Counted from the stretch's first letter, positions 15,652-22,576 are shown. The stretch: 64,000 bases of DNA from an uncultured Gammaproteobacteria bacterium (GCA_963778585.1 CAVZUU010000006.1:660-64659); one strand, 5' to 3'. Made by a program: numbers and translations. Notes: generated by a model not told the origin, from the sequence alone.

Positions 15652-17292
15652 TCAATGCGCGTGTGGGGTGTGCGTTGCGCCGGCCGTCACGGGGCGCAGT
15701 TCCCGCTTAGAACAGGGCGCGGCAAGATCGACCTCATTGAGCTCAATCTGTTTTCCGGGAGTCTGCCAGGACGCGAAGTAACTCGGGCTGCGTTTCATCG
15801 GCACTTGAATGCCAAGCTGCGTCGACAGGACTGCCTGAAACAACATCGCGAGGTCGGCGTCGTCGGGAAGTCTTTTGGCCAGCCGTCCGTCGGACGAGTA
15901 CACCGCAAGGAACGGCGAGAACTTCTCGTTGTGGCAGTTTTCCTCCACGGTATCCTGCGAGTGCCGCCCACTGCCATGGTCGCCGTGGATCAGGATTACG
16001 ACGGGGCGGTCCGAGCGCCCGGCGATTTCGGAGACCTGACGCGCGACCGCCGTCGTGATCCACTGGACCATAGGCGGCAGCCGTTCGCGGTACATGCGCT
16101 CGCGGAAAACGCCAAGCCACCAGTTGTCTGCCAGTTCCCAGCGCGCCTCGTAGCCAGAAAAGCTTCCATTCGCCTGGACAACGAAAGGTCCGTGCGGGGC
16201 GAGCATGTGCTCGTAGAAATAGGTCGGCTCTCGCCAAGTTTCCACCGGGGGAACATCGGCCTGGGACTGCAGCAAGGTATTGTGACGCGAATAGATCAGA
16301 CTTTGCCTGGAGTGTGCCTCGCATAAGGCCACCAGCGGAGTTTCCTTGTGAATGGCGTATTGATGGAAACTGAATTCGCACCAACTCTGCGCCGGGCCCC
16401 AGCGCTCGTCCGCTCCGCCTGGGACTGCGCGAGGATAGCTGGTTTCCGCGGCGACGAAGCGATAACCCGACGCTCGTAGCGCCCGCATCACCGGGCTGTG
16501 TTCCAAACGACGGCTCAACATCGCGCGCGTGATCCGACCTTCGAGCTGCGCGGGTGCCTGATCCAGTTTCAGCGCCATCTCGGCGATCAGGGGCTCTACG
16601 GTGTGCATCTCGAACACCGATGCGAGCGACATGAGGGTATGACCGTAGTTGCTCCGGGCGTCCGGGATTACCTTGAAGCCCAACGTCTCGAGTGAGCCGG
16701 TGAACCCCGAGTTGTCGATGCCATGCACGTCCCGCAGCACTTTCGAGGCCGGGAAGCCATCCATCACGATGTGCACGATGTGGGGCAGCCGCTCTTTCGC
16801 AACGGTGGCGACCAGCGGCTGCGGGAGCTCGCGCGGCGGCGTCGAGTTCCAGACGAAGCTGGCTGTGATCCATGCCGGTTGCAGAAGCCACGCCGCAGTG
16901 AGCACGTTGGCCAGGAACACAATCTCGCGGCCCCAGCGCATCTGCATCAGGACCGCGCCGATCGCAATGGCGACAGCGAACCAGACGACGACCTGGAAAA
17001 GGGCCGGTTCACTTACCAGAGAGCCGAACGAAAACCAGAGCATGACGGGCGGTGTAAGCAGCACCGCGGCCCGCGTCATTGATCGCAATGCGATTGCAAC
17101 GGCGGCCCACAACACAAGTGCAGTAACACCCTGTAGAAGGGCGGTCTGGATGGCCTCCGGAATCGCCATGGTCGCGTGACGCAGCCCGACCCACATGGCC
17201 GTCGGCAGCGGAGCCATCAGCATGAACAGGGGCAGGCACCGTAATCGGTTCCACACGCCTGGCTTTCTTACGTCAGAAAAGTACGAACTCAT
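15652..17292 (-). CDS. membrane-anchored alkaline-phosphatase-superfamily (sulfatase/LtaS/PEtN-transferase-like) enzyme
   Basis: About 160 aa of N-terminal TM helices. The catalytic-type motifs are HIVMDGF, SNYGHTLMSL, HMLAPHGPF and VILIHGDHGSG. The start overlaps the upstream stop (ATGA). Confidence 0.7.
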   Translation of the reverse strand: MSSYFSDVRKPGVWNRLRCLPLFMLMAPLPTAMWVGLRHATMAIPEAIQTALLQGVTALVLWAAVAIALRSMTRAAVLLTPPVMLWFSFGSLVSEPALFQVVVWFAVAIAIGAVLMQMRWGREIVFLANVLTAAWLLQPAWITASFVWNSTPPRELPQPLVATVAKERLPHIVHIVMDGFPASKVLRDVHGIDNSGFTGSLETLGFKVIPDARSNYGHTLMSLASVFEMHTVEPLIAEMALKLDQAPAQLEGRITRAMLSRRLEHSPVMRALRASGYRFVAAETSYPRAVPGGADERWGPAQSWCEFSFHQYAIHKETPLVALCEAHSRQSLIYSRHNTLLQSQADVPPVETWREPTYFYEHMLAPHGPFVVQANGSFSGYEARWELADNWWLGVFRERMYRERLPPMVQWITTAVARQVSEIAGRSDRPVVILIHGDHGSGRHSQDTVEENCHNEKFSPFLAVYSSDGRLAKRLPDDADLAMLFQAVLSTQLGIQVPMKRSPSYFASWQTPGKQIELNEVDLAAPCSKRELRPVTAGATHTPHAH

Positions 17293-20953: not shown

Positions 20954-22576
20954 TCATTGCGGAATGGGTGCCGATTGACGGCAATCATGGCGCAAGCGGA
21001 ACAGTCGGATCTGGCCGACTGGCTCGATCTCCTCGTAGCAGGTCCAAAGGCGCGCGAATTCCGGACTGCTGCCATAGAAAGCCAGGTCGTCGAACCGGCG
21101 ATAGGCCAGTCCGAGGCGCCGCTGTCTGGCTTCCACCATGACAAAGGCCGGGCGATTCCGCCCTAGATCCTCGACGACCATCGACACTTGCTGTTCGGTC
21201 GCGCGATCGATCGCGCGCAGCTGCGCGTCATCTTTTATCTCGGATCGGCGGACATGAGCCGGGATCGCGAACTGCGCGACTTCGCGGCCGGCCCAACGCG
21301 TGCCGAGATAGTTGACCGTCGGGAATCCGGGATTTGGATGGGTAGAGATCGCATAGAGGTAGTCCGATGACCGGACTCCGAGGGTCCGCAGCCGGTCGAT
21401 CACTTCCTGGCGCGTCCAGCCCCATTCTCCTTCGCTGCGATGTGCAGACCGGTACCAGTGATGCGCCTGCAAGAATGGCTCGAACAACACCGGCAGTGCG
21501 ACCAGTAGCAACACGGCTATGGACAGCCAGCGTAGCTCCCGGCGCGAAGTGAACGTGCTGCGCCGAATCGCGTCGATGCCCTGGACCATGGCGAAAGCCA
21601 GGTACACACAGCCTGCGCCGAGAATCGGAAACGCATGGTACGGAAAGCCCTTACCCTGCACCCAGTAGCTGATAGAAAAGCCGGCGATTGCGGCGATTAG
21701 CACGGCATGCTGCCGATTGAACGAGAAAGTCACGAGTGCGATGCCGAGCGCGTAGGCGGCGGGCAATATGGCTTCGCTGAAACGATCGAATAACAGTCGG
21801 CCGGAACCGTCATAGGCCCAGTACACGGCGCGTATCAGCGGCAGTGCGAAATCGAGGTATTCGCGGGCGAACACCAGAATTGCCGCCGCATACGTGAGCA
21901 CGGCGATCGCGATCGCGATCGTCTCGGCGCGTATCAACACGCGAAAACTCCGGGTCAGCTGCAGGTTCAGCAACTCGAGCAGCACCGGCACGGCAATCAG
22001 GAATGGCTTCAGGCAAAAGCCGATGCCGGCTACAAACCCTACGAGCACCGGAAGCGCGCGGCCGGTCGCCGGCGCGCCGCCCGCGCGGCCCATCATCGAG
22101 AACAGGTACGGCAGGATTAGGATGAACGCGAGGACGTCGCGTTGCCCGAAATTTCCAATCGGTAAAATCGTAGCGACTGCCACACTGGTAATGATCAGTC
22201 CAATGACTTCGATCCGGCCAAGGAGCCTGACCATCGGAACGAGAACCGCGGTCGCGAATGCAATGCCCGCGACGGTCAGCAACCAGGTCCATGCCTGGAT
22301 CGCGACGATCTCGGTCAGGATGCCTGACCGCGCCGCCGCGGCGGCTGGCAGCATCATGAACCACGCAAGCGGCGGGTTCGGATCGAGGATGTCGGTGCCG
22401 AATCGCTTACCGTCCAGCAACCATGCGGCGGAATGTGCGATCCACGCAACATCGTGATTGACGTGCACCTGCGACTGAAAATGGACGCCCAGGATGACGA
22501 ACAACAGGCAAACCGCAAGCGTCGCCGAAGCCGCGAATTCGCTCGAAGTCAGGAAGCCGAATCTGGAAACCGACAT
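20954..22576 (-). CDS. GT-C fold polytopic membrane glycosyltransferase (ArnT/PMT_2-like), putative
   Basis: 540 aa with about 11 predicted TM helices. The first periplasmic loop carries HDVAW...DGKRFGTDILDPNPPL (a Dx-type acidic motif). There is a ~150-aa C-terminal soluble domain. Confidence 0.55.
   Translation of the reverse strand: MSVSRFGFLTSSEFAASATLAVCLLFVILGVHFQSQVHVNHDVAWIAHSAAWLLDGKRFGTDILDPNPPLAWFMMLPAAAAARSGILTEIVAIQAWTWLLTVAGIAFATAVLVPMVRLLGRIEVIGLIITSVAVATILPIGNFGQRDVLAFILILPYLFSMMGRAGGAPATGRALPVLVGFVAGIGFCLKPFLIAVPVLLELLNLQLTRSFRVLIRAETIAIAIAVLTYAAAILVFAREYLDFALPLIRAVYWAYDGSGRLLFDRFSEAILPAAYALGIALVTFSFNRQHAVLIAAIAGFSISYWVQGKGFPYHAFPILGAGCVYLAFAMVQGIDAIRRSTFTSRRELRWLSIAVLLLVALPVLFEPFLQAHHWYRSAHRSEGEWGWTRQEVIDRLRTLGVRSSDYLYAISTHPNPGFPTVNYLGTRWAGREVAQFAIPAHVRRSEIKDDAQLRAIDRATEQQVSMVVEDLGRNRPAFVMVEARQRRLGLAYRRFDDLAFYGSSPEFARLWTCYEEIEPVGQIRLFRLRHDCRQSAPIPQ

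Follow-up and report, generated by a model that had tools for sequence, protein, structure and literature searches.

We analyzed the six genes that lie between mutS and aspS, at positions 15652-22576, in a 64 kb stretch of DNA from an uncultured Gammaproteobacteria bacterium (GCA_963778585.1 CAVZUU010000006.1:660-64659), which we call the window throughout. The first-pass annotation of this DNA had treated the six genes as a single cluster for modification of the cell envelope, inserted between its two neighbors. On balance we favor a different reading, in which the region holds two unrelated units side by side and the first of them (19212-22576) glycosylates a type IV pilin. This unit encodes a glycosyltransferase of family 2 (GT2), a methyltransferase and a polytopic protein with a GT-C fold. 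That it forms a three-component periplasmic glycosylation system appears highly probable; that its acceptor is the pilin, as judged from sequence and gene order, is favored with more reserve. The second unit (15652-18940) is a trio of minus strand genes.

The interval between mutS and aspS

All six open reading frames (ORFs) are found where the first-pass annotation had placed them (Table 1), and its account of how they are joined was confirmed as well. The minus strand genes are linked by overlapping start and stop codons, which read TCAT on the plus strand, at 17289-17292 and 18725-18728, and the GT2 and methyltransferase genes share an ATGA at 20234-20237. The start of the gene for the GT-C protein of 540 amino acids (aa) is 18 nucleotides (nt) away from the stop of an alpha/beta hydrolase gene at 22595. 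At its other end it converges on the methyltransferase gene, with only 30 nt between the two stops. The flanking genes were correctly named as mutS, in which we see five MutS Pfam domains, and aspS (tRNA-synt_2, E-value 4e-123). No consensus sigma-70 promoter was found in the divergent region between the two units, and promoter and terminator scans gave nothing exceeding the shuffled expectation.

Table 1. Features of the mutS-aspS interval and of the pilus locus in the window
Feature	Position	Strand	Support
Membrane enzyme of the alkaline phosphatase (AP) superfamily (sulfatase fold), 546 aa, EptA/MCR-1/LtaS-like	15652-17292	-	fold and motifs
Two-domain protein with C-terminal class I S-adenosylmethionine (SAM) methyltransferase, 479 aa, soluble	17289-18728	-	Methyltransf_23, sub-threshold
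Small membrane protein, 71 aa, first gene of the cassette	18725-18940	-	translation; YLDPGTGS motif
Intergenic stretch separating the divergent cassette and GT2 operon	18941-19211		sequence
GtrB-type GT2, polyprenyl-phosphate glycosyltransferase, 335 aa	19212-20237 (likely start ATG 19230)	+	PF00535; PDB 5ekp
Class I SAM methyltransferase, 229 aa, soluble	20234-20923	+	Methyltransf_25, Methyltransf_11
GT-C fold glycosyltransferase, 540 aa (predicted)	20954-22576	-	AlphaFold2 model, Foldseek, NHD motif
Alpha/beta hydrolase, conserved part of about 200 aa	22595-23200	-	Abhydrolase_6
Pilus core locus, sucD-sucC (minus strand) and pilS-pilR-pilA-AP697-pilB-pilC-pilD	37905-49956		
pilS, pilR	40061-43027	+	6TM_PilS, HisKA, Sigma54_activat
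PilA, type IVa major pilin, 177 aa, proposed acceptor	43221-43754	+	PF00114 E 3.5e-16; N_methyl E 7.5e-10
Pilin-adjacent membrane AP-superfamily protein, 697 aa	43810-45903	+	PF00884 E 1.4e-17
pilB, pilC, pilD	46044-49956	+	T2SSE E 4e-149; T2SSF; Peptidase_A24

The search for related loci, which used an 18-sequence alignment, yielded ten loci of uncultured Steroidobacteraceae-like Gammaproteobacteria with aspS 86-90% identical to that of the window. Wherever the contigs reach, the GT2 and the 229 aa methyltransferase are encoded beside mutS, and the GT-C protein and a hydrolase of about 196 aa beside aspS. Given that the GT2, methyltransferase and GT-C genes occupy this place in all ten loci, the idea of a recent insertion between mutS and aspS is not supported. 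Nor is the right boundary ambiguous, as had been suggested. Throughout this clade the hydrolase gene stands between aspS and GT-C, and the modules linked to the pilus genes, which are described below, do not have it. We rejected it as a member of the system on the ground that it follows aspS and not GT-C, and it is probably outside.

The absence of a flippase gene, which the first-pass annotation had pointed out, is real and among the relatives peculiar to this genome. In every relative that spans the junction a gtrA gene follows the methyltransferase gene, and the window is the only locus of the clade without one. A tblastn search of the 64 kb returned no GtrA, MprF-type or ArnE-like match and no GtrA remnant. 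The trio of minus strand genes is more variable. It is present in three of the ten clade loci (the window and those numbered L004 and L013), in each of them divergent to GT2, and the other seven lack it. Additionally, most of the clade relatives have a gene similar to fatty acid desaturases and one for a methyltransferase of 307 aa.

That last pair, a membrane protein of the desaturase family (PF00487) and a methyltransferase of about 307 aa with a weak UbiG-like match, accompanies GT-C and GtrA at 11565-13516 of L001 and also in L004, L005, L006, L012 and L103, and is absent from the window. The pair may act on the lipid-linked sugar, or else on the polyprenyl carrier. Many loci also have a second GT-C paralogue which is about 30% identical to the first and has no Pfam match (L004 2194-3777, L006 8339-9850, L007 3174-4730 and L103 10663-12237), which points to two different sugars or to a pair of acceptor sites; the window has one GT-C. 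In L013, on the contig CAVPNV010000002.1 of a metagenome-assembled genome (MAG), every gene including aspS, mutS and the module is split into frame-shifted tblastn segments, which looks like sequencing or assembly error rather than pseudogenisation.

The interval had also been described as less GC-rich than its flanks, and horizontal acquisition had been suggested from this. The dip itself is real and modest. Windowed GC content is 0.61-0.63 in the interval compared to 0.66-0.69 in the flanks, and GC content at third codon positions (GC3) is 0.74-0.77 in the genes of the interval and about 0.80-0.90 in most other genes of the window. The inference drawn from it is not supported, since the homologues in the relatives are also below the GC3 of their own mutS and aspS. 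The dip thus belongs to these genes themselves and has little bearing on a recent arrival. Values of GC and GC3 that are equally low are found elsewhere in the 64 kb. Neither the trio nor the other three genes are flanked by the signature of a mobile element. Around the trio no tRNA, insertion sequence (IS) element or flanking repeats mark the borders, and the repeats present are short chance ones. A recent horizontal insertion of the interval is not supported.

Some other features of the window can be recorded here. The first 6000 nt have a GC content of 0.59-0.62 in four of the six 1 kb windows (0.664 at 4-5 kb), with the GC3 of genes down to 0.70-0.73, and the sole tRNA found in the window, a tRNA-Ser GCT, is at 3261-3351. 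The kilobase 43001-44000 is among those lowest in GC (0.602) and coincides with pilA, where the mechanical ORF list contains a spurious ORF of 169 aa on the opposite strand (43203-43712). Two other mechanical ORFs are over-extended. That of mutS (12032-15496, 1154 aa) has its Pfam domains from residue 334 onward, relatives have about 860 aa, and the true start is probably near 12905. That of the hydrolase (22595-23716, 373 aa) runs into aspS, and its relatives have 196 aa.

The glycosylation unit and its probable acceptor

The GT2 is GtrB/ArnC-like, as proposed in the first-pass annotation. It matches PF00535 (E 4e-32) and aligns over its full length to the Synechocystis GtrB structure 5ekp (E 1e-81), with ArnC at about 1e-50. 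Among the NCBIfam models it finds PgfS (9e-77) and ArnC (4e-54), both under their equivalog cut-offs. A DAD motif is present, and, with two transmembrane (TM) helices at the C-terminal end, the protein shows the GT-A domain and TM hairpin that characterize the synthase of three-component systems. Both methyltransferases of the interval are class I SAM enzymes, again as proposed. The one in this unit matches Methyltransf_25 (E 1.6e-19) and Methyltransf_11 (E 1.6e-18), has no TM helix, and its gene accompanies that of the GT2 in 11 related loci as well as in L103, L104 and L012.

The GT-C protein is less accessible to sequence searches. It has no match in Pfam (PF13231 and PF02366 included) or NCBIfam even at an E-value of 10, and none in the PDB by phmmer. 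The 64 homologues found in 5.8 billion clusters come without functional names, and one remote homologue (25% identity) has the UniRef name RgtA/B/C/D-like. The AlphaFold2 model, built with 38 homologues, has a predicted local distance difference test (pLDDT) score of 95 and shows about 11-12 TM helices followed by a C-terminal periplasmic domain of mixed alpha/beta structure and about 130 aa. When this model was compared to the PDB with Foldseek, the 22 best matches were all GT-C (probability 1.0, TM-score 0.4-0.58); AftA, STT3, ALG12/ALG9, AglB, PglB, AftB/D, Emb, ALG6 and PMT are the structures matched. The residues N40-H41-D42 are invariant in the 38 homologues, down to 23% identity, and are just past helix 11-35 (TM1), so that a conserved acidic residue, Asp42, is placed by the sequence in what should be the first periplasmic loop after TM1. 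GT-C enzymes have their catalytic acidic residue at this position, and the same role is predicted here. By its model the protein thus has the GT-C fold, and the earlier GT-C assignment is borne out by fold and motif, though not by PF13231 or PF02366 as had been expected. The family to which this protein belongs has no Pfam or NCBIfam model.

These parts suggest a mechanism. On the cytoplasmic side of the membrane the GtrB-type GT2 would take a sugar from a nucleotide sugar and attach it to polyprenyl phosphate, and the 229 aa methyltransferase would probably methylate the lipid-linked sugar, a step for which the ArnD-type editing of lipid-linked sugars offers an analogy. The carrier would then be flipped to the periplasm by a flippase borrowed from elsewhere, where the relatives use an adjacent GtrA or MprF-type protein. 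Finally, the GT-C enzyme would transfer the sugar to a serine or threonine of PilA by means of the invariant Asp42. The pairing of a polyprenyl-phosphate sugar synthase with a GT-C enzyme was already recognized in the first-pass annotation and holds up. The logic would be that of TfpW of Pseudomonas aeruginosa, with a donor of hexose type replacing D-arabinofuranose (D-Araf).

The case for pilin as the acceptor comes from more distant homologues of the GT-C protein (36-40% identity) at nine loci outside the mutS-aspS clade. A pilA gene, recognized by the pilin N-terminus of its product, is no more than 6 kb from the GT-C homologue in eight of the nine, and in the ninth the contig stops 0.6 kb beyond the GT-C gene. 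In L103 the order is pilD-pilC-pilB-pilA, two AP-superfamily genes, two GT-C genes, a desaturase, two methyltransferases, GT2 and pilR-pilS-sucC. L104 has coaE-pilD-pilC-pilB, an unknown gene, pilA, AP, GT-C, GtrA, methyltransferase, GT2 and pilR-pilS-sucCD, and L012 has a pilB fragment, AP, pilA, GT-C, desaturase, methyltransferase, GtrA, methyltransferase, GT2 and a pilR fragment. The whole module is therefore between pilA and pilR in these three. Nucleotide-sugar genes come first in L109, followed by GT2, GT-C, GT2, GtrA, AP and pilA-pilB-pilC-pilD, and in L105 pilA is followed immediately by the GT-C gene. When the window proteins are compared to those of L103, L104 and L012, the GT2 is 63-64% and the methyltransferase 51-52% identical, next to 63-64% for PilR, 52-54% for PilS and 53-57% for PilA. 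The identity of the GT-C protein (37-40%) is about that of the pilin-adjacent AP protein (35-40%). The best reading of this is that the module of the clade is orthologous to the pilus-embedded ones and has moved from the gap between pilR and pilA into the one between mutS and aspS.

Some of the pilus-linked modules also carry an MprF-type LPG_synthase_TM gene (PF03706), in L009 (15001-15951) in addition to GtrA and in L105 (12354-13376) replacing it, where a 118 aa EamA-like protein is encoded as well. The flippase component appears to be interchangeable.

The window has a complete core locus of its own for a type IVa pilus (Table 1). Its PilA has the pilin N-terminal motif, a cluster mate that is named PilA, and a stretch rich in serine and threonine within the C-terminal disulfide loop. 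The gene between pilA and pilB encodes the 697 aa AP-superfamily protein, and such a gene is kept beside pilA in at least six other genomes. Aligned end to end, the protein shows 35-40% identity to those encoded beside pilA in L103, L104, L105, L009 and L012, and has no similarity to the 546 aa protein of the trio. We found no published mention of this pilin-adjacent gene. Taken together, the orthologous module between pilR and pilA elsewhere and the pilA gene with its AP neighbor 20 kb off in the window would make a serine or threonine of the type IVa pilin the most likely acceptor.

Other acceptors have to be weighed against this. The unit could glycosylate a surface polysaccharide (O antigen, capsule or exopolysaccharide) or some other protein, and the proximity to pilA could mean that this region is a dumping ground for accessory genes. 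Classical Gtr systems do modify O antigen, nucleotide-sugar biosynthesis genes are next to the module in L109 and L108, remote members of the family are without pilus linkage, and in the clade of the window the module is away from pilA. However, eight of nine loci keep the linkage to pilA although gene order and strand vary, an additional AP gene occurs and the flippases are of different types, which argues for selection on the linkage. The place of the GT-C gene in L105 is also that of tfpO and tfpW, and no polysaccharide polymerase, export gene or initiating transferase was seen in these loci. We consider an acceptor of this kind rather unlikely.

It could also be that all six genes are one horizontally acquired island that decorates lipid A, the core of the lipopolysaccharide (LPS) or another envelope glycan. 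The GT2 and GT-C enzymes would then add a sugar as in the Arn and Gtr systems, and the AP enzyme and the methyltransferases would add further groups. The enzyme classes fit LPS-modifying systems, GC3 is below that of the flanks, and the trio is variably present in the clade. These observations have to be set against the synteny of GT2, methyltransferase and GT-C in all ten clade loci, a GC3 dip common to the relatives, the lack of tRNA, IS element or flanking repeats, and the occurrence of the trio on its own elsewhere, which we describe below. The orthologues are also found within pilus loci and not LPS loci. From the list of acceptors in the first-pass annotation, comparative genomics favors pilin. 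A single decorating island seems to us very unlikely.

The comparison with the Arn system, which we reject, also counts against such an island. The GT2 does align over its full length to ArnC, and the acceptor-side enzyme is a GT-C in both. However, the ArnC model score is 183.8 bits, far under the cut-off of 529, and GtrB is the better match. No ArnT is among the top 50 Foldseek matches listed, and the interval contains no ArnA, ArnB, ArnD or ArnE/F gene.

Several points weigh against pilin glycosylation as the function of the first unit. Its module is about 20 kb from pilA here, and the link to pilin rests on orthology and not on local context. For every member of this GT-C family the activity is a predicted one. 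Remote homologues at no more than 29% identity occur outside pilus loci (a flagellar locus in L106, and GT87 genes of Dongia in L107), and acceptor specificity may have changed within the family. Regions around pilA are known hot spots for accessory genes, which could make the linkage look stronger than it is. With GtrA lost, and likewise the desaturase/methyltransferase pair that most relatives have, the module could be decaying here; the three genes that remain are all full length. The target of the methylation is something that we purely infer. Finally, in each of the three clade loci with the trio, it lies divergently beside the GT2, and a functional link is possible.

The flagellar locus is a case in its own right. 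At L106 6364-10521 a remote homologue of the GT-C protein (29% identity), a GT2, a methyltransferase and an FdtA-like sugar isomerase are encoded among flgA, flgH, flgI and fliX. This sister branch may have a flagellar or other acceptor.

The pilin glycosylation unit that we favor can be compared with two known systems. TfpW of P. aeruginosa Pa5196/PA7 is a GT-C enzyme, encoded next to pilA, which O-glycosylates the major pilin from a polyprenyl-phosphate-D-Araf donor made in the cytoplasm and needs the GtrA-like protein 6247; ArnE/F may substitute where a GtrA-like protein is absent, a precedent for the borrowed flippase proposed here. Both systems have a GT-C genetically tied to pilA (for ours, in the orthologous loci), a monosaccharide donor linked to a lipid phosphate, and GtrA-like flipping (for ours, in the relatives). 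TfpW has 646 aa, a C-terminal tetratricopeptide repeat (TPR) domain and a DDX motif, whereas the GT-C protein of the window has 540 aa, a small alpha/beta C-terminal domain without a Pfam match to TPR, and an NHD motif. The donor of TfpW comes from a phosphoribosyl pyrophosphate transferase with DprE1/E2, and the one here would come from a GtrB-type GT2 with a methyltransferase coupled to it. The GT-C gene of the window is also about 20 kb from pilA instead of beside it. These features give no support to membership in the TfpW family. With the Gtr systems (GtrA/GtrB/Gtr*) of O-antigen glucosylation in Shigella and Salmonella our unit shares a GtrB that is orthologous by sequence and a GT-C enzyme, and the relatives carry GtrA between them. 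Unlike those systems, the window has no GtrA and has an extra methyltransferase, the relatives add a desaturase-like enzyme and a second methyltransferase, and the genomic association is with pilA and not with O-antigen genes or prophages.

The minus strand trio

The 546 aa protein has no match in Pfam (PF00884 included) or NCBIfam even at an E-value of 10, and a phmmer search of the PDB was empty. Twenty homologues were found, and distant homologues carry PF00884. In a 13-sequence alignment that includes such PF00884 proteins, D178, T219, H362, H367 and D438 are invariant and H439 is nearly so (at least 90%), and these residues would be equivalent to the metal and nucleophile residues of MCR-1. 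Five N-terminal TM helices are followed by a periplasmic catalytic domain. The model is of moderate quality (pLDDT 75), and its best Foldseek matches are EptA (5fgn, E 5e-9), MCR-1, EptC, PbgA and LtaS. As with the GT-C protein, the class proposed in the first-pass annotation, a membrane enzyme of the AP superfamily, is upheld by fold and motifs and not by the Pfam family.

The other two proteins are more difficult to place. In the 479 aa protein the sub-threshold match to Methyltransf_23 covers residues 296-414, and a profile search of the PDB matched the SAM-binding motif and nothing more. Its N-terminal domain of about 275 aa is well conserved and has no Pfam or PDB match by profile. The pattern D127-x4-N132 ... 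I143-D144 suggested a kinase-like core by analogy with WbdD, which was not confirmed; hhalign of the domain against an aminoglycoside kinase, with an approximate query sequence, gave a probability of 0.1%. The N-terminus of the 71 aa protein resembles a signal peptide and ends in AWA; a nearly invariant YLDPGTGS, a single TM helix and a basic tail come after it. Neither Pfam nor NCBIfam gave a match to this protein even at an E-value of 10.

This trio is a common arrangement. More than 1,800 homologues of the 479 aa methyltransferase were found in an indexed search, and a profile search of 1.84 billion representatives with its N-terminal domain gave 5076 clusters at 50% identity, the best 150 of which are all of about 465 aa with the same architecture and no informative fusion. 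In Devosia sp. SL43 and in one Woeseiaceae MAG the trio is surrounded by unrelated housekeeping genes, and neither a GT2 nor a GT-C gene is close to it. We surveyed 80 metagenome loci for the cassette. A small ORF with the motif A-Y-(L/I)-D-P-G-(T/S)-G-S is upstream of the methyltransferase homologue in 45 of the 67 that could be tested, and the motif is likewise encoded upstream in Devosia and Woeseiaceae. Of the 51 metagenome loci that could be tested on the downstream side, 36 have a large ORF immediately after the methyltransferase homologue; among the exceptions are some with the large gene upstream instead. Together with the 546 aa protein of the window and the partners in Devosia and Woeseiaceae, these 36 make 39 scanned partners. 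PF00884 matches 22 of them, and in the full set of 39 the positions of D178, H362, H367 and D438 show a conservation of at least 90%. The first-pass view of one co-functional cluster of six genes does not survive this autonomy of the trio in unrelated genomes. It is an independent, widespread cassette, separate from the glycosylation module.

Even so, the two units could cooperate in this genome. The GT-C enzyme would add a sugar and the 546 aa enzyme would then place a phospho-alcohol on that sugar or on the same protein, with the 479 aa protein preparing the donor. There are precedents in GacL and GacH, which act on the streptococcal group A carbohydrate, and in the glycosylation and PptA phosphoform of the Neisseria pilin. 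Such a cooperation would fit the divergent position of the trio beside GT2 wherever it occurs in the clade (three loci), and also the recurrence of AP-superfamily enzymes, of a different family, beside GT-C in the pilus loci. However, the cassette is far more common than the GT-C family (more than 5,000 clusters compared to 64 proteins), it occurs without GT2, GT-C or pilin genes nearby, seven of the ten clade loci do not have it, and the 546 aa protein is unlike the pilin-adjacent AP proteins. Cooperation between the units is in our view improbable, and we keep to two separate units.

For the trio itself we can offer a tentative function by analogy, which would be to modify a periplasmic acceptor with a phospholipid head group, in the manner of EptA and LtaS. 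The 546 aa enzyme would move a phospho-alcohol head group from a phospholipid onto the acceptor, the 479 aa methyltransferase would act on the cytoplasmic side, and the 71 aa protein, with its short conserved YLDPGTGS predicted in the periplasm, would be a subunit or a substrate. The 546 aa protein resembles EptA, MCR-1, EptC, PptA, LtaS and GacH in its five TM helices, its periplasmic sulfatase-fold domain and the conserved Asp/Thr/His/Asp-His residues. It differs from these phosphotransferases in being missed by PF00884 and in its gene order, where a tiny YLDPGTGS protein and a dedicated two-domain methyltransferase are encoded ahead of it. Another comparison is with BcsE-BcsF-BcsG, the phosphoethanolamine module of cellulose, which consists of an AP transferase, a tiny single-pass protein and a cytoplasmic GIL protein that binds cyclic di-GMP. 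Going by these descriptions, both have an AP membrane transferase encoded together with a very small membrane protein and a cytoplasmic partner. In the trio, unlike in BcsEFG, this partner is a SAM methyltransferase and there are no cellulose synthase genes nearby.

Significance

The literature that we searched has nothing on the YLDPGTGS motif, on a cassette of methyltransferase and sulfatase, or on sulfatase, GT2 and GT-C genes adjacent to pilA. The first unit is thus an undescribed variant of a known glycosylation mechanism, and the adjoining cassette is uncharacterized and very widespread. A bolder proposal, which we put forward as speculative, joins two statements. One is that environmental Gammaproteobacteria have an undescribed toolkit dedicated to decorating pilin, made up of a new GT-C family, a GtrB-type synthase, tailoring by one to three methyltransferases and a desaturase-like enzyme, and working alongside a conserved AP partner of about 700 aa; the pilus would then be decorated with a methylated glycan as well as a phospho-form. 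The other is that the trio represents a new and widespread envelope class, in which the YLDPGTGS protein would be a substrate or obligate subunit of an EptA-like transferase whose donor would be prepared by the two-domain methyltransferase.

For annotation, the locus is a caution that neighboring envelope genes need not form a single island. With its more than 5,000 clusters and its presence in the cultured Devosia sp. SL43, the trio is a tractable unknown of envelope biology. The pilin-adjacent AP protein of about 700 aa is a conserved component of pilus loci that is worth study.

Glycosylation of the pilin protects type IV pili against phages and antibodies, and to our knowledge it has been traced to few enzyme types, namely the ligase-like transferases TfpO/PglL and TfpW. 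If our reading of the first unit is correct, a GT-C enzyme fed by GtrB and tied to pilA would be a third route to pilin glycosylation, and the sugars delivered by it may be methylated. A family that Pfam and NCBIfam models do not see would also gain a name, along with a function open to testing.

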